DNA of 23,415 nt. It comes from a virus (taxonomy: Duplodnaviria; Heunggongvirae; Uroviricota; Caudoviricetes). Location: IMG/VR virus record IMGVR_UViG_2690316068_000003. The stretch is one strand, 5' to 3'. Every line of letters starts with the position of its first letter. Position 1 is the stretch's first letter. The notes under the pieces were generated by a model. It was not told where the DNA came from. It made no database searches and saw nothing but the letters and a program-made list of their open reading frames with translations. The position numbers were made by a program, and so were the translations under genes. This document shows, piece by piece, positions 1 to 17,727 of this stretch.

Positions 1-1065
1 TTACCCGATCTCGATGGAAGTTATTGAGTGATCTCCTTTCATGAAAATACGCAAGTAGTTTTTAAAGCGGATGACCTCCTGACCGAGCCAGCCGTTTATC
101 TCGCGGATCCTGTCCTGTAACGGGATAAGCTCATTGCGGACAAAGACCTTTGCCACTTTCTCAATATCACCCAGCGACCCGACGTTCTCCGGCTTGCCGC
201 CCATCAACTGAAAGGGGATGCGGTGCGCGTCCAGCAGGTCAGCGGCGCTGGATTTTTTGATATTAAAAAAATCGTCCTTCGTTGCCACTTCACTGAGGGG
301 GATAATTTTAATGCCGTCGGCTTTCCCCTGCGGGGCATAGAGAAACAGATTTTTAAAGTTATTGCGGCCTTTCGACTTCACCATGTTTTCGCGAAGCATT
401 TCGATATCGTTGCGATCCTGCACGGCATCGGTGACGTACATGATGTATCCGGCATGTGCGCCGTTTTCGTAATACTTGCGGCGGAACAGCGTGGCCGACT
501 CATTCAGCCAGGCAGAGTTAAGGGCGCTGAGATATTCCGGCAGGCCGTACAGCTCCTGATTAATATCGGGCTCCAGCAGGTGAAACACGGAGCCGGGCGC
601 GAAGGCTGTCGGCTCGTTGAAGGACGGCACCCACCAGTAAACATCCTCTTCCACGCCACGACGGGTATATTTCGCCGGTGAGGTTTCCAGTCTGATGACC
701 TTACCGGTGGTGCTGTAACGCTTTTCCAGAAACGCATTACCGAACACCAGAAAATCCAGCACAAAGCGGCTGAAATCCTGCTGGGAAAACCACGGGTGCG
801 GGATAAATGTTGAAGCCAGAATATTACGTTTGACGTAAATCGGTGAGCTGTGATGTACGGCAGCACGCAGGCTTTTTGCCAGACCGGTAAAGCTGACCGG
901 TGGCTCATACCATCTGCCGTTACTGATGCACTCGACGTAATCCAGAATGTCACGGCGATCGAGTACCGGCACCGGCTCACCAAAGGTGAATGCTTCCATT
1001 TTCGGGGCGCTGGCGGTCGTTGTTTTTGCCGCTGGTCGCGGTGTTTTCCCTTTTTTCTTGCTCAT
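1..1065 (-). CDS. Q: Portal (capsid portal) protein, P2 gpQ-like, 354 aa
   Basis: Complete minus-strand ORF with ATG at 1065-1063 and TAA at 3-1. Start overlaps the stop of the upstream terminase gene (ATGA). Identified by position and by my recollection of P2 Q. Confidence 0.93.
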   Translation of the reverse strand: MSKKKGKTPRPAAKTTTASAPKMEAFTFGEPVPVLDRRDILDYVECISNGRWYEPPVSFTGLAKSLRAAVHHSSPIYVKRNILASTFIPHPWFSQQDFSRFVLDFLVFGNAFLEKRYSTTGKVIRLETSPAKYTRRGVEEDVYWWVPSFNEPTAFAPGSVFHLLEPDINQELYGLPEYLSALNSAWLNESATLFRRKYYENGAHAGYIMYVTDAVQDRNDIEMLRENMVKSKGRNNFKNLFLYAPQGKADGIKIIPLSEVATKDDFFNIKKSSAADLLDAHRIPFQLMGGKPENVGSLGDIEKVAKVFVRNELIPLQDRIREINGWLGQEVIRFKNYLRIFMKGDHSITSIEIG

Positions 1066-11703: not shown

Positions 11704-13998
11704 ATGAGCACAAAATTCAAAACCGTTATCACCACTGCCGGTGCAGCAAAGCTGGCAGCGGCAACCGCACCGGGAGGGCGGAAGGTCAACATTACCACGA
11801 TGGCCGTCGGGGATGGCGGTGGTAAATTGCCTGTCCCGGATGCCGGACAGACCGGGCTTATCCACGAAGTCTGGCGACATACGCTGAACAAAATCAGCCA
11901 GGACAAACGAAACAGTAATTATATTATCGCAGAGCTGGTTATTCCGCCGGAGGTGGGCGGTTTCTGGATGCGTGAGCTTGGCCTGTACGATGATGCGGGA
12001 ACGTTAATTGCCGTGGCGAACATGGCCGAAAGTTATAAGCCAGCTCTTGCCGAAGGCTCAGGGCGTTCGCAGACCTGTCGCATGGTCATCATCGTCAGCA
12101 GTGTGGCCTCGGTGGAGCTGACCATTGACACCACAACGGTGATGGCGACACAGGATTACGTTGATGACAAAATTGCAGAGCACGAACAGTCACGACGTCA
12201 CCCGGACGCCTCGCTGACCGCCAAAGGTTTTACTCAGTTAAGCAGTGCGACCAACAGCACGTCTGAAACACTGGCCGCAACGCCGAAAGCGGTAAAGGCC
12301 GCGTATGACCTTGCTAACGGGAAATATACTGCGCAGGATGCCACCACAGCGCGAAAAGGTCTTGTCCAGCTCAGTAGTGCCACCAACAGCACGTCTGAAA
12401 CGCTCGCCGCAACACCAAAAGCGGTAAAGGCCGCGTATGACCTTGCTAACGGGAAATACACTGCACAGGACGCCACCACAGCGCGAAAAGGTCTTGTCCA
12501 GCTCAGTAGCGTCACCAACAGCGATTCTGAAACGCTTGCGGCAACACCAAAGGCGGTTAAGACAGCGTATGACCTTGCTAACGGGAAATACACTGCACAG
12601 GATGCCACCACGGCGCGAAAAGGTCTTGTCCAGCTCAGTAGCGCCACCAACAGTGATTCTGAAACCCTCGCGGCAACGCCAAAAGCAGTGAAGTCTGCCT
12701 ATGACAATGCTGAAAAACGTCTTCAGAAAGATCAGAACGGTGCGGATATTCCGGGAAAGGATACCTTCACGAAAAATATCGGTGCCTGTCGTGCTTATAG
12801 CGGCGCTTTGAGCACTGAAGCCGGAAACTGGACAACCGCTCAGTTTATTGAATGGCTGGATTCCCGTGGTGCATTTAATCATCCGTACTGGATGTGCAAA
12901 GGCTCCTGGTCATATGCAAATAACAAAATCATTACGGATACCGGATGTGGTGATATCCACCTGGCTGGTTGTGTCGTCGAGGTCATGGGAACTAAATCTG
13001 CAATCACTATCCGAGTGACCACGCCGACAACATCAAGTGGTGGCGGTACAACCAGCGCGCAATTCACTTACATTAATCATGGGGACGGCTACTCCCCCGG
13101 CTGGCGTCGTGACTGGAATCGTCAGGGCGACTCAATGACCGGAACGATTAATCAGGATGGCGGAAGCCAGAATGCCTATATGTCTACGGCCTTATGTTCA
13201 GGCACCAGAGGCGGCAAAAAATATCTCAGAAAGTTTCGTGGTGGAGAAGGAGACACTATCTGGCATGAAACAGTACAGGGCGGGGTAGTTCGCTGGGCGA
13301 CTGGTAATACTGATGCTCAGGAAGAATTATCACTCAGCTCCGCTTATGGTCTCCGTTCAAGAGGTGAGATTACATCACTCAGTGCTAATGGTCTGCGCAT
13401 TGCTTATGGCAATTATGGATTCTTTATCAGGAATGATGGCAGCAGCACTTATTTTATGTTGACTAAATCAGGTGACAGATTAGGTACTTATAATAATTTA
13501 AGACCACTGATTATAAATGATGCCACGGGTGCTGTATCAATGGGGCATGGCCTGAGTGTTACTGGTGATATTGTCTCAAGTACCAAAGTACGTGCCGGTA
13601 GCGGGAAAAAATTCACGGTCAGCAGCAGTAATACATCCACGAAGGAAGCCGCATTCAATTTGTGGGGAAACTCAAGTCGTCCGGTGGTGGCTGAATTAGG
13701 TGATGATGCAGGCTGGCATTTTTACAGTCAGAGAAATACAGATAACAGCATCACTTTTGCTGTTAACGGTCAGGTATCACCATCTAACTATAGTAATTTT
13801 GATTCCCGTTATGTACGCGATATCCGGCTTGGGACTCGAGTTGTCCAGACCATGCAGAAAGGGGTGATGTATGAGAAAGCAGGGCACGTAATTACCGGGC
13901 TTGGTATTGTCGGTGAAGTCGATGGTGATGACCCCGCAGTATTCAGACCAATACAAAAATACATCAATGGCACATGGTATAACGTCGCACAGGTGTAA
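11704..13998 (+). CDS. H: Tail fibre protein, P2 gpH-like but longer (764 aa), with a mosaic low-GC distal domain
   Basis: The GC-rich N-terminal part is P2 H-like. Contains four in-frame 44-aa repeats carrying the phage tail-fibre repeat motif (SETLAATPKAVK). The distal half is AT-rich (about 30% GC on a sampled line) and is presumably the receptor-binding domain. Confidence 0.9.
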   Translation: MSTKFKTVITTAGAAKLAAATAPGGRKVNITTMAVGDGGGKLPVPDAGQTGLIHEVWRHTLNKISQDKRNSNYIIAELVIPPEVGGFWMRELGLYDDAGTLIAVANMAESYKPALAEGSGRSQTCRMVIIVSSVASVELTIDTTTVMATQDYVDDKIAEHEQSRRHPDASLTAKGFTQLSSATNSTSETLAATPKAVKAAYDLANGKYTAQDATTARKGLVQLSSATNSTSETLAATPKAVKAAYDLANGKYTAQDATTARKGLVQLSSVTNSDSETLAATPKAVKTAYDLANGKYTAQDATTARKGLVQLSSATNSDSETLAATPKAVKSAYDNAEKRLQKDQNGADIPGKDTFTKNIGACRAYSGALSTEAGNWTTAQFIEWLDSRGAFNHPYWMCKGSWSYANNKIITDTGCGDIHLAGCVVEVMGTKSAITIRVTTPTTSSGGGTTSAQFTYINHGDGYSPGWRRDWNRQGDSMTGTINQDGGSQNAYMSTALCSGTRGGKKYLRKFRGGEGDTIWHETVQGGVVRWATGNTDAQEELSLSSAYGLRSRGEITSLSANGLRIAYGNYGFFIRNDGSSTYFMLTKSGDRLGTYNNLRPLIINDATGAVSMGHGLSVTGDIVSSTKVRAGSGKKFTVSSSNTSTKEAAFNLWGNSSRPVVAELGDDAGWHFYSQRNTDNSITFAVNGQVSPSNYSNFDSRYVRDIRLGTRVVQTMQKGVMYEKAGHVITGLGIVGEVDGDDPAVFRPIQKYINGTWYNVAQV
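12226..12704 (+). repeat. Tandem in-frame 132-bp repeats, about 3.6 copies, inside H
   Basis: Unit starts at 12226, 12358, 12490 and 12622, each beginning GGT (Gly). Encoded units are near-identical (GLVQLSSATNSTSETLAATPKAVKAAYDLANGKYTAQDATTARK). The minus-strand track ORFs 12234-12650 and 12238-12882 are mirror artefacts of this array. Confidence 0.9.
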
Positions 13999-14001
13999 TT
14001 T

Positions 14002-14529
14002 ATGCAACATTTAAAAAATATTACTGCGGGTAATCCAAAAACTGTTGCCCAATATCAACTGACAAAAAATTTTGATGTTATCTGGTTATGGTCCGAAGAG
14101 GGAAAAAACTGGTATGAGGAAGTAAGTAATTTTCAGGAGGACACGATAAAGATTGTTTACGACGAGAATAATATAATTGTCGGCATCACCAGAGATGCTT
14201 CAACGCTTAACCCTGAAGGTTTTAGCGTTGTCGAGGTTCCTGATATTACCGCCAACCGACGTGCTGATGACTCAGGTAAATGGATGTTTAAGGATGGTGC
14301 CGTGATTAAGCGGATTTATACGGCAGACGAACAGCAGCAACTGGCAGAATCACAAAAGGCAACTTTGCTTTCCGAAGCCGAATCCGTGATTTTGCCGCTG
14401 GAGCGCGCTGTCAGGCTGAATATGGCAACAGATGAGGAACGCAGCCGACTGGAAGCATGGGAACGCTACAGCGTTCTGGTCAGCCGTGTGGATCCTGCAA
14501 ATCCTGAATGGCCGGAAATGCCGCAATAA
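14002..14529 (+). CDS. G: Tail fibre assembly chaperone, P2 gpG-like (Tfa family), 175 aa
   Basis: Immediately after H. The C-terminal ...[25 protein letters not shown] is Tfa-like. The 5' two-thirds is AT-rich and the 3' third is GC-rich. Confidence 0.85.
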
Positions 14530-14564
14530 GTTGTATAAGCTCTGGTGTGAGATTACATATCTAT

Positions 14565-14604
14565 GGCACAGAGTAAAGCCTAATCTGATAGGCCGCTCTG
14601 TGTC
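14565..14604 (+). other. Stem-loop downstream of G (9-bp stem with one G-U pair, about 22-nt loop with an internal GCCT/AGGC mini-stem)
   Basis: GGCACAGAG at 14565-14573 pairs with CTCTGTGTC at 14596-14604. There is no clean U-tract, so it is not a canonical intrinsic terminator. Confidence 0.3.
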
Positions 14605-14644
14605 TGGAGTAGATTTTAGTAAAGCATTATTTTATTAGTGCAAA

Positions 14645-14673
14645 TTCTAAACAATACATTTTATGTATATGAT
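14645..14673 (+). promoter_or_regulatory. Putative sigma70-type promoter for the cargo ORF
   Basis: TTCTAA at 14645-14650, a 17-bp spacer, then TATGAT at 14668-14673, in an AT-rich context about 80 nt upstream of ATG 14751. The -35 is weak and the call is by eye only. Confidence 0.2.
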
Positions 14674-14750
14674 ATCCTGCGGACTTTAATGACTTGGTTT
14701 AGGCTAACCAGATAACACTGAAGGAATATTTTTGATAATTAAGGTGCGGT

Positions 14751-15344
14751 ATGTTTACTAAGCGACGATTAAAAAATATTAATTGGGAGGCAAGTTCAGT
14801 GATTCTTGCTATGGTTCTCTTTGCTGGAAATATATTTTATACAAATCATCGTGATGATATAAGCATGGAGGCTGAGAGAGACAGTATCAGAACAATGTTT
14901 GCATATGAAATCGCTAATAACCATCGCGCTCTCACCTTTCTTGATAAAACGAGAAATATTGGCTTTGACGAAAATTCGGAGCATTTTGTTGGCGAGCCTT
15001 TTGCCATTAATGTCAAATCATTAGGAGGGCCTCGCTTACAGGTTGCATTAAACCAGACTGATAAAGTTTTTAAAGCCTACTTCAGTGAATTAAGTAAACT
15101 TGATAAAGAGGATGTTACTCTTCTTATGGACTATTACCATGAGCAAAGCATCCTGCTGGAGTGTGTAAAATCTACGTTACAGAAGATGAAAAGCAATAAT
15201 GATATTAAAGTTGATATTGATGGTTACTTATTAGAAGAACACTTCATGAATGAGTTTAATCTTTCTAATATTTTGCTTAAACGCTATAGCCATTTGTTGT
15301 CACAACACCTCAAAAAACCTGAAACAAAAGATTTACATAATTGA
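14751..15344 (+). CDS. Hypothetical membrane-anchored protein (197 aa), cargo gene in the G-FI accessory slot; candidate phage-exclusion/defence protein
   Basis: ATG 14751 with AAGGTG 4 nt upstream. Sampled 60-nt lines give 25-40% GC against about 60% in FI. Basic N-terminus (KRRLK) followed by one hydrophobic helix (SSVILAMVLFAGNIFY), then a charged, probably helical domain of about 165 aa with no motif I recognise. Confidence 0.7.
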   Translation: MFTKRRLKNINWEASSVILAMVLFAGNIFYTNHRDDISMEAERDSIRTMFAYEIANNHRALTFLDKTRNIGFDENSEHFVGEPFAINVKSLGGPRLQVALNQTDKVFKAYFSELSKLDKEDVTLLMDYYHEQSILLECVKSTLQKMKSNNDIKVDIDGYLLEEHFMNEFNLSNILLKRYSHLLSQHLKKPETKDLHN

Positions 15345-15550
15345 TGATCTGCTAATGGTTATTCATGGGATAACTATGTTTTATATGTAATCCAACTCAG
15401 ATGAATTATTGATTCTGGATAATAACCGCAGAGCGGCATATACCCTGACAGGCAAATGTCCGCTTCTTGCTCAAAGCAGACTGTCAGATTTGATAACTTT
15501 TGGGTTATGTAAATTGTCAGGCGGAAAATGAGTGAGTACAAATCAGGACA

Positions 15551-15577
15551 GGCGGGCGAATTGCCCGCCTTTTCTTT
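15551..15577 (+). terminator. Rho-independent terminator downstream of the cargo ORF
   Basis: GGCGGGC (15551-15557), loop GAATT, GCCCGCC (15563-15569), then TTTTCTTT. Confidence 0.6.
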
Positions 15578-15673
15578 ATCTGTTGTTTCATCCACTGACC
15601 AGCCAGGTCAAATAGCGTCTTATGCTCTGCACAACAGAAAATAGTTGCACCCATTAACCACGGAGTTAAACGG
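15578..15673 (+). promoter_or_regulatory. Region upstream of FI expected to carry the late promoter (P2 P_F equivalent)
   Basis: Positional inference from P2 operon structure. I could not identify a perfect TGT-N12-ACA box. GGAG at 15662-15665 serves as the FI RBS. Confidence 0.3.
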
Positions 15674-16864
15674 ATGAGTGACTATCATCATGGCGTGCAG
15701 GTGCTGGAGATTAACGACGGCACCCGCGTCATTTCCACCGTATCCACGGCCATTGTCGGCATGGTCTGCACGGCCAGCGATGCGGATGCGGAAACCTTCC
15801 CCCTCAATAAACCGGTGCTGATTACCAATGTGCAGAGCGCAATTGCAAAGGCCGGTAAAAAAGGCACGCTGGCGGCGTCGTTACAGGCCATCGCAGACCA
15901 GTCAAAACCGGTCACCGTTGTTGTGCGCGTGGAAGACGGCACCGGCGACGACGAAGAAACGAAACTCGCGCAGACCGTTTCCAATATCATCGGCACCACC
16001 GACGAAAACGGTCAGTACACCGGACTAAAAGCCCTGCTGGCGGCGGAGTCGGTAACCGGTGTTAAACCGCGTATTCTCGGTGTGCCGGGACTGGATACCA
16101 AAGAGGTGGCTGTTGCACTGGCATCCGTCTGTCAGAAGCTGCGCGCTTTCGGATATATCAGCGCATGGGGCTGTAAGACCATTTCCGAGGTGAAAGCCTA
16201 CCGCCAGAATTTCAGCCAGCGTGAGCTGATGGTCATCTGGCCGGATTTCCTCGCATGGGATACGGTCACCAGTACCACCGCCACCGCGTATGCCACCGCC
16301 CGTGCGCTGGGTCTGCGCGCTAAAATCGACCAGGAGCAGGGCTGGCATAAAACGCTGTCCAACGTCGGGGTAAACGGTGTTACCGGCATCAGCGCATCTG
16401 TATTCTGGGATTTGCAGGAGTCCGGCACCGATGCTGACCTGCTTAACGAGTCAGGCGTCACTACGCTGATTCGCCGCGACGGTTTCCGATTCTGGGGTAA
16501 CCGTACCTGCTCTGATGACCCGCTGTTCCTCTTTGAAAACTACACCCGCACCGCGCAGGTGATGGCCGACACGATGGCTGAGGCGCACATGTGGGCGGTG
16601 GACAAGCCCATCACCGCAACGCTGATTCGCGACATCGTTGACGGCATCAATGCCAAATTCCGTGAGCTGAAAACAAACGGCTATATCGTGGATGCGACCT
16701 GCTGGTTCAGCGAAGAATCCAACGATGCGGAAACCCTCAAGGCCGGAAAACTGTATATCGACTACGACTATACCCCGGTGCCTCCTCTTGAAAACCTGAC
16801 CCTGCGCCAGCGTATTACCGATAAATACCTGGCAAATCTGGTCACCTCGGTTAACAGCAATTAA
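15674..16864 (+). CDS. FI: Tail sheath protein, P2 gpFI-like, 396 aa
   Basis: ATG 15674. P2 order and length; sequence matches P2 FI as recalled. Confidence 0.95.
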   Translation: MSDYHHGVQVLEINDGTRVISTVSTAIVGMVCTASDADAETFPLNKPVLITNVQSAIAKAGKKGTLAASLQAIADQSKPVTVVVRVEDGTGDDEETKLAQTVSNIIGTTDENGQYTGLKALLAAESVTGVKPRILGVPGLDTKEVAVALASVCQKLRAFGYISAWGCKTISEVKAYRQNFSQRELMVIWPDFLAWDTVTSTTATAYATARALGLRAKIDQEQGWHKTLSNVGVNGVTGISASVFWDLQESGTDADLLNESGVTTLIRRDGFRFWGNRTCSDDPLFLFENYTRTAQVMADTMAEAHMWAVDKPITATLIRDIVDGINAKFRELKTNGYIVDATCWFSEESNDAETLKAGKLYIDYDYTPVPPLENLTLRQRITDKYLANLVTSVNSN

Positions 16865-17451: not shown

Positions 17452-17727
17452 ATGAACAAAGAAAATGTCATTACCCTGGAAAATCCGGTCAAGCGTGGTG
17501 AGCAGGTCATCGAACAGGTCACGCTGATGAAACCCAGTGCCGGGACGCTGCGCGGTGTCAGTCTGGCTGCGGTCGCGAACTCCGAAGTCGATGCACTGAT
17601 TAAGGTGCTGCCGCGCATGACGGCACCGATGCTGACCGAGCAGGAAGTCGCCGCGCTGGAACTGCCTGACCTTGTGGCGCTGGCCGGTAAGGTGGTCGGT
17701 TTTTTGTCGCCGAACTCGGTGCAGTGA
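17452..17727 (+). CDS. E: Tail assembly chaperone, P2 gpE-like, 91 aa
   Basis: ATG 17452, stop TGA at 17725-17727. P2 order and length. Confidence 0.9.
   Translation: MNKENVITLENPVKRGEQVIEQVTLMKPSAGTLRGVSLAAVANSEVDALIKVLPRMTAPMLTEQEVAALELPDLVALAGKVVGFLSPNSVQ

Follow-up and report, generated by a model that had tools for sequence, protein, structure and literature searches.

What is carried between the tail-fibre assembly gene and the tail sheath gene of this P2-like prophage, and what might it do? The question arises at one place in the window, the term used here for the whole 23,415-nt stretch of viral DNA that was analysed: a gpG-like gene stops at 14529, the gpFI sheath gene starts at 15674, and between them lies an AT-rich insert. 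An earlier note on this DNA had recognized the insert and had placed it at the Z/fun position of P2. Both observations were confirmed, the first by gene calls and the G+C profile and the second by the P2 record, in which fun(Z) lies between G and FI. The G+C content, determined in 200-nt segments, is 0.285–0.385 over 14500–15500, as against 0.52–0.61 in FI; that of the ORF within the insert is 0.34, and that of the whole window is 0.54.

The note had taken the entire interval 14530–15673 as the foreign island, and this proved too wide. In alignments with P2-like phages bearing other cargo, the phage backbone reaches approximately 14602 on the left and resumes at approximately 15455 on the right, so the actual cargo is confined to approximately 14603–15454. 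The features of the region are collected in Table 1. A stable hairpin (approximately 14565–14603) is situated in the backbone spacer that follows G, and the segment 14530–14650 folds with −36.6 kcal/mol (z=−3.6). On the right, the strong terminator and the pF promoter region are phage backbone, outside the island. The terminator is conserved in all five of the aligned phages, with a z of −3.2 for the fold of 15530–15590, and it would stop transcripts of the ORF as well as read-through from the V–G operon. For pF, an Ogr activator site at approximately 15578–15606 and a transcription start at approximately 15648–15650 would correspond to features 17555–17583 and 17626–17628 of the P2 record. 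An Rfam scan of 14400–15800 gave no match above noise.

Table 1. Features of the G–FI interval and of the protein encoded there. Nucleotide positions are those of the window.
Feature	Position	Strand	Basis or remark
gpG-like tail-fibre assembly gene, left backbone neighbour	14002..14529	+	Pfam Caudo_TAP, E=9.4e-35; GpG annotation in related phages
Backbone spacer 3′ of G	14530..14602	+	Conserved in DC1, 9W and PhiR44_1 to ~14602 regardless of cargo
Left arm of slot-flanking inverted repeat, AATCTGATAGGCCGCTCTGTG	14582-14602	+	Repeat comparison
Foreign AT-rich cargo segment, ~850 bp	14603..15454	+	Complete divergence from other-cargo P2-like phages; G+C 0.29-0.39
Weak sigma-70-like match, ATAACA-16-GATAAT	14712..14739	+	Promoter scan
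Shine-Dalgarno-like AAGGTG	14741..14746	+	Read from sequence; AAGGAG in L008 and L004
36-nt junction motif AATGTCCGCTTCTTGCTCAAAGCAGACTGTCAGATT, start of right backbone	15455..15490	+	Conserved in P2, DC1, 9W and YpM_115
Right inverted-repeat arm (3′ part of junction motif)	15470-15490	+	Inverted relative to left arm
Strong intrinsic terminator, 9-bp GC-rich stem then TTTTCTTT	15550..15570	+	Terminator scan; just upstream of pF
pF late promoter region	15578..15650	+	Coordinates inferred: P2 annotation transferred by alignment
gpFI tail sheath gene, right backbone neighbour	15674..16864	+	Pfam Phage_sheath_1, E=1e-33; Phage_sheath_1C, E=4e-23
Basic tail of protein	residues 1-11		AlphaFold model and sequence
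Membrane helix	residues ~12-32		Prolonged as stalk to residue 66 (continuous helix 12-66 in model)
Loop	residues 67-91
Helices completing four-helix bundle	residues 92-100, 105-116, 119-148, 151-178

The cargo contains, as had been reported, a single well-formed ORF with a good ribosome-binding site (14751–15344, + strand, ATG start, 197 aa; the AAGGTG stands four bases upstream of the start). It is apparent that this ORF did not arise by chance, because 33 of its 35 copies in P2-like phages are intact, polymorphism is enriched at the third codon position (17, 7 and 25 sites for positions 1, 2 and 3, respectively), and homologues with 55–71 % identity occur in other genera in unrelated contexts. 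Values of dN/dS among close alleles are 0.12–0.66. The cargo segment is 96–98 % identical in 13 P2-like phage records and was found in 203 of 5426 complete Escherichia coli genomes (3.7 %), extraintestinal clinical lineages included; P2-like prophages, as judged by the FI region, are present in 1694 of these genomes, about one third. These results demonstrate a real and intact gene, foreign in composition, under purifying selection and mobile between unrelated mobile elements. Truncated alleles of 99 aa were also observed, on approximately 40 contigs. The insert is best explained as a moron, an accessory cassette of one gene that is self-contained and moves horizontally, here lodged in the Z/fun cargo slot.

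Database searches place the protein in an uncharacterized family. It matches phrog_3829 (function unknown) over positions 1–197 of 197 with an E value of 9.5e-133, and a cluster representative of 569 members (P0001) is 100 % identical; the only label given to the family by NCBI is 'lysogenic conversion protein'. No match was obtained in Pfam, NCBIfam, PADLOC or PDB sequences with either the single protein or a 27-sequence profile. In PADLOC-DB v2.0.0, which includes PD-T4/T7/Lambda, Rousset's systems, HEC and the PDC candidates, no family was reached at E≤10, and four distant members (P0059, P0064, P0056 and P0067) likewise gave no match to a PADLOC defence family. These Pfam and PADLOC searches bear out the statement of the earlier note that nuclease, TIR, HEPN, SIR2 and Walker signatures are absent. 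In the literature consulted, no paper names the protein, its accessions or phrog_3829. The family is tiny, with a rare and patchy distribution: 1.84 billion representatives yielded 29 clusters, and members were found only in the Enterobacterales; among species-representative genomes only two matches were found, in Kosakonia and Proteus.

How the gene is expressed bears on whether it serves the phage itself. A promoter scan of 14400–15800 returned one site, where shuffled sequences average 4.3; that site is doubtful as a real promoter, since no more than 11 nt separate the end of its −10 element from the ATG, and no convincing promoter belonging to the ORF was therefore found in the scanned region. 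The sole upstream stretch conserved with relatives in other contexts is TTTTTGATAATTAAGG. The ORF points the same way as the late tail operon. No canonical terminator separates it from G, and a strong one is first encountered at 15550–15570. Read-through of the V-W-J-I-H-G transcript, ending at that terminator, could accordingly provide late expression together with the tail genes and a function in the phage life cycle, such as blocking re-adsorption of progeny to lysed cells or tuning lysis. Such a function is nevertheless very unlikely. Close homologues do without phage structural genes around them, being found on an IncFII plasmid, in P4-like satellites, in ICE-type islands and on a small integrative island; most P2-like phages lack the gene (it is present in approximately 203 of the 1694 E. 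coli genomes that bear the FI region); and most transcripts of the V operon may already stop at the stable backbone hairpin that follows G.

The slot itself is better known than its occupant. That it is an accessory hotspot, as the earlier note held, and one for defence genes as well, is documented in Vassallo 2022 and in the Egorov 2024 preprint; the former describes it as a second defence hotspot of P2 and reports three validated systems there. The survey of the slot across P2-like prophages that the note had proposed gave 37 cargo types in a sample of 48 slots, and in IMG/VR the two inverted-repeat arms lie 1.0–5.9 kb apart and bracket 37 different cargos. PADLOC models were matched by three of 10 alternative cargos. 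The hotspot is already known to hold dozens of uncharacterized cargo genes. Two of these, both unannotated, share with the present cargo its slot, its AT-richness and a similar architecture: a 259-aa type (in L080) and a 251-aa type (in phage 9W and in L065), each with an N-terminal membrane helix and a helical domain as read from the sequences, the 251-aa type being encoded on the opposite strand. The 259-aa protein is the commonest alternative transmembrane cargo, and it has no detectable homology with the family (hhalign probability 0.2 %).

Occupancy of the same slot raises the possibility that the protein is a diverged homologue of P2 Fun(Z), the T5 exclusion and FUdR sensitivity gene. 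The note had left open whether the gene was a homologue of fun or an unrelated replacement, and the comparison identifies it as an unrelated replacement. Both are non-essential, AT-rich lysogenic-conversion genes of the G–FI slot, and neither has a Pfam family, but Fun(Z) comprises 528 aa as against 197 aa here and is encoded on the opposite strand. An hhalign comparison of the family profile with Fun(Z) gave a probability of 0.07 % (E=0.69). Homology with Fun(Z) is rejected at the sequence level and is hardly credible as an explanation of this gene.

It was of interest to see in which company the relatives of this gene are found. They occur as solitary cargo on five kinds of mobile element: in P2-like phages, in P4-like satellites, at the end of a lambdoid prophage, on plasmids and in ICEs. 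Since the relatives on plasmids, ICEs and P4-like satellites reside on elements that lack tail genes, a role in the virion or as a fibre accessory is ruled out, in agreement with the view that the gene is not needed for virion structure. In four P4-like satellites (L005, L009, L057 and L059) the family gene lies just downstream of the primase gene, in the primase-att slot, a site identified in a 2026 NAR study as a minor P4 defence hotspot. Elsewhere it adjoins a type II restriction-modification pair (E about 1e-180) at the end of the lambdoid prophage (L006), LmuA and LmuB on a plasmid-like contig (L023), and a gene with a putAbiC domain in Proteus (L060). In the old/tin hotspot of another P2-like phage (L058) it follows a KAP-NTPase (PDC-S49, E=4e-88) by 45 nt. 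A relative with 28 % identity (L018) is found 39 nt after a coiled-coil ThsB-like TIR protein (PDC-S66, E=2e-112), beside the integrase that borders an integrative element carrying conjugative-transfer genes. In one further case the gene ahead of a co-oriented distant homologue, at a distance of 275 nt, encodes an ATPase of 1524 aa whose N-domain is LmuA-like. In a raw tally of approximately 15 contexts, defence-gene neighbours or defence hotspots thus recur, as is looked for in guilt by association; within the close branch (≥55 % identity), a known defence gene was immediately upstream in none of eight contexts. By location and association the gene is a reasonable candidate for a new phage-defence gene.

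The protein was then considered for clues to its action. A basic N-terminal tail and one hydrophobic segment had been described, and both were borne out, the segment spanning residues ~12–32; no second hydrophobic segment and no known motif was detected. An AlphaFold run with close homologues only was uninformative (pLDDT 50), whereas a deeper alignment to which distant members had been added gave a confident model (pLDDT 83), in which the N-terminal membrane helix runs on into a four-helix bundle. All 26 members with a preserved N-terminus have a net charge of +1 to +7 in the tail, as compared with −3 to +2 after the helix. This bias and the model are in line with the orientation previously proposed (N-terminus inside, one membrane helix, an extracytoplasmic domain of about 165 aa, which is helical in the model), and the bundle is accordingly predicted from charge bias to face the periplasm. 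CxxxxC pairs in the C-domain of four distant members are consistent with periplasmic disulfides. The fold match is to a generic four-helix bundle and carries no mechanistic information: comparable folds are seen in the periplasmic ligand-binding domains of chemoreceptors and sensor kinases (PDB 6s18, 8bsa, 8wdf and 4k0d), but the 4HB_MCP-type layout, i.e. a bundle between two membrane helices with a cytoplasmic transmitter, was not found here. No sequence match to the PDB was significant, and no match among the BFVD viral predicted structures reached E≤1e-3. As only about 11 residues are predicted to be cytoplasmic and none of 50 homologues has an added domain, any activity would lie in the membrane or the periplasm.

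From these data we infer a topology, a defence role and a mechanism of entry block, as follows. The product would be a bitopic inner-membrane protein with about 11 basic residues in the cytoplasm and a four-helix bundle of about 165 aa in the periplasm. The bundle would interfere with the tail tip, tape measure or DNA-entry route of an incoming phage or, alternatively, with a host inner-membrane protein used by the phage, such that adsorption would be normal and genome entry would fail. That the gene is an envelope-level anti-phage determinant of this superinfection-exclusion type is the most likely of the explanations considered, plausible if somewhat short of probable. HK97 gp15, a small protein of the inner membrane, blocks the entry of DNA; like the present cargo it is a one-gene moron among the tail genes of a temperate coliphage and is followed by a terminator, but it belongs to a siphovirus, and because it has only 62 aa, with no room for a four-helix bundle, it cannot be homologous over the full length. 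T4 Sp and the lactococcal Sie2009 family, likewise encoded by phages, act at DNA entry; they are anchored in the membrane at the N-terminus and expose a domain of about 100–170 aa outside the cytoplasm. In general outline, their architecture matches the one predicted here. HK97 gp15 is cited as a superinfection-exclusion protein, and McGrath 2002 (Sie2009) appears among the references of Rousset 2022.

The membrane helix is unusually conserved, polar residues and S16 included, and it contains a small-xxx-small motif (S16...A20); this conservation suggests a specific helix–helix contact rather than a passive anchor. It counts in favour of the exclusion reading and also of a different one, in which the protein would be a membrane effector, or the partner of one, in abortive infection, its helix oligomerizing and damaging or depolarizing the inner membrane when triggered. 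The distant relatives would be triggered by an upstream cytoplasmic TIR or KAP-NTPase sensor, while the P2 branch of the Enterobacterales would have become autonomous. The co-oriented distant homologues downstream of the TIR, KAP-NTPase and 1524-aa ATPase genes accord with such an arrangement, as does the belief, expressed in Rousset 2022, that transmembrane proteins of known anti-phage systems are suicide effectors. We consider this explanation rather unlikely, however. The adjacency to TIR and KAP-NTPase genes may only reflect clustering in defence islands, because both PDC-S66 and PDC-S49 are listed as candidates consisting of a single gene; no known defence gene stands immediately upstream in the eight close-branch contexts; and a predicted periplasmic domain with an 11-residue cytoplasmic tail offers no obvious route for a cytoplasmic signal. 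Nor is the gene related to the transmembrane proteins encoded by the TIR system of AC1 (Rst 2TM-1TM-TIR), the two AC1 hotspot proteins that were compared, the 185-aa 1TM protein and a 305-aa protein, giving hhalign probabilities below 1 %. The AC1 1TM and 2TM proteins match PADLOC models of their own, and no TIR gene lies in the slot here, so that a TIR plus transmembrane-effector system (Thoeris type II-like or Rst) is not indicated.

A more speculative proposal, and a distinctly improbable one, would make the family a new kind of outside-in sensor or adaptor of infection. The periplasmic bundle, held by a conserved membrane helix prone to interactions, would detect or intercept the tail tip or tape measure, acting alone in the P2/P4 branch or coupled through the membrane to cytoplasmic TIR or KAP-NTPase effectors in the branch with 28–32 % identity. 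The family would then be a modular envelope-level sensing component shared by otherwise unrelated defence systems.

Published challenges of lysogens give the only experimental hint as to a defence role, and it is mildly negative. AC1 and SIDE7 encode proteins 98.5 and 93.9 % identical, respectively, to the family member studied here, and E. coli C lysogens of both phages have been challenged with lambda, T4, P1, 186, CLB_P2, LF82_P8, AL505_P2 and T7. The AC1 lysogen alone was reported to be protective, and the AC1 TIR system alone reproduced that protection. At native expression, then, these phages reveal no effect of the present gene; T5-like phages are absent from the panel, and for SIDE7 the lack of protection is implied rather than stated.

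The lack of attributable protection on these panels also fits a lysogenic conversion unrelated to phages, in which the product would be an envelope factor of benefit to the host, such as an orphan immunity protein directed against a periplasmically acting toxin or a modulator of an envelope process. The predicted anchor and periplasmic domain do resemble those of immunity proteins, e.g. the membrane-anchored colicin M immunity protein Cmi, and the NCBI label of the family points in the same direction. The slot can hold cargo of other than defensive nature, as in YpM_115, where it contains a regulator and an efflux pump, and a locus for an Rhs toxin is found within a few kb of one relative. Set against this, the immediate neighbours of the family are repeatedly anti-phage genes and not toxin genes, a cognate toxin gene was adjacent in none of the contexts examined, and the family is as rare and patchy as described above. 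We consider a host-benefiting role of this sort likewise rather unlikely.

The gene is, in sum, a real, selected and uncharacterized cargo gene in a slot that, together with its role in defence, was already known. The differences in phage sensitivity between strains have a main source in the cargo slots of P2-like prophages. The inverted arms of 22–36 nt that surround at least 37 AT-rich cargos provide a simple handle by which further candidates may be harvested. The present gene, a single one of 594 bp of which allelic variants and partnered versions both exist in nature, constitutes a cheap and well-defined test case. If it does block phage entry, a family lacking a Pfam, NCBIfam or PADLOC model would join the short list of envelope-level defences, and its presence would have a bearing on the choice of phages in therapy.

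The window is a P2-like prophage; Peduovirus genomes are 95-97% identical to it over ~90% of its length. The gene under study lies in the Z/fun slot, between a gpG-like chaperone gene and the gpFI sheath gene, where the earlier note had described one ORF with a ribosome-binding site and foreign, AT-rich composition. That description was confirmed: the ORF is the single substantial one in the interval, its AAGGTG is in place, and the G+C content is 0.29-0.39 across 14500-15500, whereas the structural genes on either side have 0.52-0.61 (ORF, 0.34; whole window, 0.54). The limits of the insert were set by alignment to P2-like phages with other cargo (P2, DC1, 9W and vB_YpM_115). The backbone reaches ~14602 and resumes from ~15455, and the foreign DNA is therefore 14603-15454, ~850 bp.

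Features of the cargo slot, of loci carrying homologues or motif copies, and of the predicted protein
Feature	Location	Strand	Remarks
gpG-like chaperone gene	window, end 14529		left neighbour of slot
Stable backbone hairpin after G	window ~14565-14603		z=-3.6 for segment 14530-14650
Left arm	window 14582-14602		inverted relative to right arm
Cargo ORF	window 14751-15344	+	197 aa; AAGGTG 4 bases 5' of ATG
Right arm	window 15455-15490		inverted relative to left arm
Strong intrinsic terminator	window 15550-15570		backbone; common to all aligned P2-like phages
gpFI sheath gene	window, start 15674		right neighbour of slot
Distant member after coiled-coil TIR protein	L018 5090-6657		ThsB-like; PDC-S66, E=2e-112
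Distant member after KAP-NTPase	L058 4172-6585		PDC-S49, E=4e-88; old/tin hotspot of another P2-like phage
Right-arm motif, Enterobacter IncFII plasmid and Pantoea island	L004 5708-5743; L008 5706-5741		~115-150 nt downstream of homologue
Near-perfect right-arm copy, ICE	L025 10673-10708		~4 kb from distant homologue
Continuous helix	residues 12-66		spans membrane segment and stalk (AlphaFold2)
Loop	residues 67-91		AlphaFold2
Four helices	residues 92-100, 105-116, 119-148, 151-178		pack as up-down four-helix bundle (AlphaFold2)

No canonical terminator was found between G and the ORF, nor a convincing sigma-70 promoter for the gene. The pF late promoter, placed here by annotation transfer from P2, is a backbone feature common to the aligned phages. 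Several phage records annotate a minus-strand ORF of 38-45 aa (15517-15654) as hypothetical protein FIG00643520. It lies across the terminator and pF promoter region of the backbone and is probably an annotation artefact.

In P2 the same slot holds fun(Z), but Fun(Z) is a 528-aa product encoded on the opposite strand. Homology between the two proteins was rejected, as profile comparison gave a probability of only 0.07%. The idea that the window gene might encode a P2 Fun homologue is thereby contradicted, and the alternative raised with it, that the gene is an unrelated replacement for fun(Z), is borne out at the level of profiles.

The cargo is flanked by inverted copies of a 22-36-nt motif with the core GCWCARAGCRGAMTGTCAGATT (slot loci: window, L015, L017 and L062-L140). 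An exact-pattern scan located this motif in at least 120 IMG/VR contigs; where two exact copies were present, they were inverted (minus then plus) and 1.0-5.9 kb apart. When arm mismatches were allowed, 48 non-identical IMG/VR slots held 37 cargo types, all with G+C contents of 0.32-0.45. The window's cargo type is among the commoner ones (4 of 48), and 3 of 10 sampled alternative cargos matched PADLOC models. The arms may mark crossover points for cargo exchange, or may simply be conserved backbone. Right-arm copies also occur outside the P2 slot; either a piece of P2 backbone moved with the gene, or the motif belongs to a mobile cassette.

The commonest cargo in the sample, a 259-aa type (L080), and the 251-aa gene of phage 9W (L065/L017) likewise have products in which a membrane helix at the N-terminus precedes a helical domain. 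Homology of the 259-aa type to the window family was not detectable, and PADLOC matched neither. In Yersinia phage vB_YpM_115 (L016), the slot contains genes for a NepI-like efflux pump and a LysR-type regulator (pgrR by annotation), together with one hypothetical gene; use of the slot is therefore not limited to defence cargo. Elsewhere in the window, the translation of tail-fibre gene H (11704-13998) contains ~4 tandem copies of a ~44-aa unit, ...KGxxQLSSATNSxSETLAATPKAVKxAYDLANGKYTAQDATTAR...

Published surveys support the earlier note's account of a variable accessory hotspot. The Z/fun slot was a second defence-enriched P2 locus, with three of the systems validated there, in the study of Vassallo et al. 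(2022), and a mixed-purpose hotspot in the preprint of Egorov & Atkinson (2024). Moura de Sousa et al. (2026) placed one P2 defence hotspot among the tail genes, downstream of GpL, and assigned to it 16% of the P2 defence systems that they found. The window protein is mentioned in none of these, nor in any other paper of the library searched.

The entire insert is 96-98% identical across 13 P2-like phage records. It is present, always chromosomally, in 203 of 5426 complete E. coli genomes, its carriers representing ~12% of the 1694 that have the FI region. The conservation check gave an intact gene in 33 of 35 copies; of the other two, the first runs off its contig and the second lacks 1 nt near the 3' end. 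In L040, an IMG/VR copy, a 1-nt deletion changes the last ~10 residues. Shortened 99-aa alleles (P0040 and P0042 cluster members) were seen on ~40 E. coli contigs, and the gene would appear to be on its way out in some lineages. Polymorphic sites are distributed 17/7/25 over codon positions 1/2/3, and pairwise dN/dS among close alleles is 0.12-0.66; by these sequence measures, the gene is real and under selection. Homologues with 55-71% identity come from Pantoea, Kosakonia, Salmonella, Pluralibacter and Enterobacter, and remoter ones (21-38%) from Dickeya, Pectobacterium, Proteus and Salmonella. This is a very small family: a search of 1.84 billion representatives gave 29 clusters at E<=1e-3, and the gene was detected in 2 of 185,579 species-representative genomes.

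The protein matches phrog_3829, a family without assigned function, over its full length; its NCBI name, 'lysogenic conversion protein', has no traceable functional content behind it. Searches of Pfam, NCBIfam, PADLOC and PDB sequences, with the single sequence and with a 27-member profile, gave no match. AlphaFold2 modelling with close homologues only reached a pLDDT of 50; with distant members added, it reached a pLDDT of 83 (pTM 0.72) and yielded a membrane helix and a helical bundle. The basic N-terminus and single hydrophobic helix noticed earlier were confirmed. An N-in, C-out topology is predicted because the N-tail has a net charge of +1 to +7 in 26 of 26 members keeping the N-terminus and the 15 residues after the helix one of -3 to +2, there is one hydrophobic segment, and CxxxxC pairs are present in the C-domain of four distant members. 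The bundle would then be periplasmic. A non-phage envelope function, e.g. as an immunity protein against a periplasmically acting toxin, is considered unlikely. Conservation of the membrane helix is strong and extends to its polar residues: S16, near-invariant family-wide, makes up a small-xxx-small motif together with A20. Full invariance is seen at R47, N57 and L117 and near-invariance at A51, E53, I54 and Y129, and an extra domain is absent from every homologue examined.

Among the 8 contexts examined for close relatives (identity 55% or more), none has a known defence gene immediately upstream. In Pantoea and Kosakonia P4-like satellites (L005, L009, L057 and L059), the gene lies downstream of the primase gene, a position described in a 2026 study as a minor P4 defence hotspot. 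Other sites are one end of a lambdoid prophage in Salmonella, where a type II methyltransferase and endonuclease pair lies immediately downstream (PADLOC E ~1e-180); an Enterobacter IncFII plasmid, where a PIN/HTH pair and an IS91 element adjoin the gene; a small Pantoea island of the AlpA type; and, in Pantoea rodasii, the vicinity of an AbiJ-like gene. Distant members adjoin LmuA and LmuB on a plasmid-like contig, lie inside an ICE transfer region and beside a putAbiC-domain gene in Proteus mirabilis, and follow a 1524-aa ATPase with an LmuA-like N-domain. Nucleotide similarity between contexts covers the ORF and ~20 nt upstream, extending ~140 nt downstream in two cases only. This pattern, an association rather than proof, is as expected for a mobile defence or exclusion gene. 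A virion-assembly role is excluded by these contexts. That the gene serves the phage itself late in its life cycle is highly improbable.

The members in L018 and L058 share 28-32% identity with the window protein. PDC-S66 and PDC-S49 are both catalogued as single-gene candidates, but because a family gene follows them by 39 and 45 nt, respectively, these loci may be two-gene systems. The L018 pair adjoins an integrase and sits at one edge of an integrative element that carries conjugative-transfer genes. A rival reading of the window protein, considered unlikely, is an abortive-infection effector that damages the membrane; in view of these TIR and KAP-NTPase partners, it could be what is left of a two-gene system. 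Only ~11 residues are predicted to be cytoplasmic and the window slot encodes no partner; any activity would therefore lie in the inner membrane or periplasm. As the leading reading, an exclusion-type block of phage genome entry is tentatively proposed: the tail tip or tape measure of an incoming phage, or else an inner-membrane protein of the host on which that phage relies, would be engaged by the periplasmic bundle or by the conserved membrane helix.

The gene is carried by AC1 (protein 98.5% identical) and SIDE7 (93.9%), phages of Rousset et al. (2022), who challenged E. coli C lysogens of four new phages with lambda, T4, P1, 186, CLB_P2, LF82_P8, AL505_P2 and T7. AC1 alone was reported protective, against lambda and LF82_P8, and the cloned AC1 TIR system gave the same phenotype. 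Because that system alone reproduces it, no protection due to the window-type gene is visible on this panel at native expression, the SIDE7 negative being only implied and T5-like phages being absent from the panel. Such AT-rich cargo might, however, be kept silent in a lysogen. What little experimental evidence exists is mildly negative.

Taken together, some anti-phage role is somewhat favoured. Candidacy for defence or exclusion is reasonable and strengthened by the contexts examined, though still unproven. The type of locus is already known; the gene family occupying it is uncharacterised.
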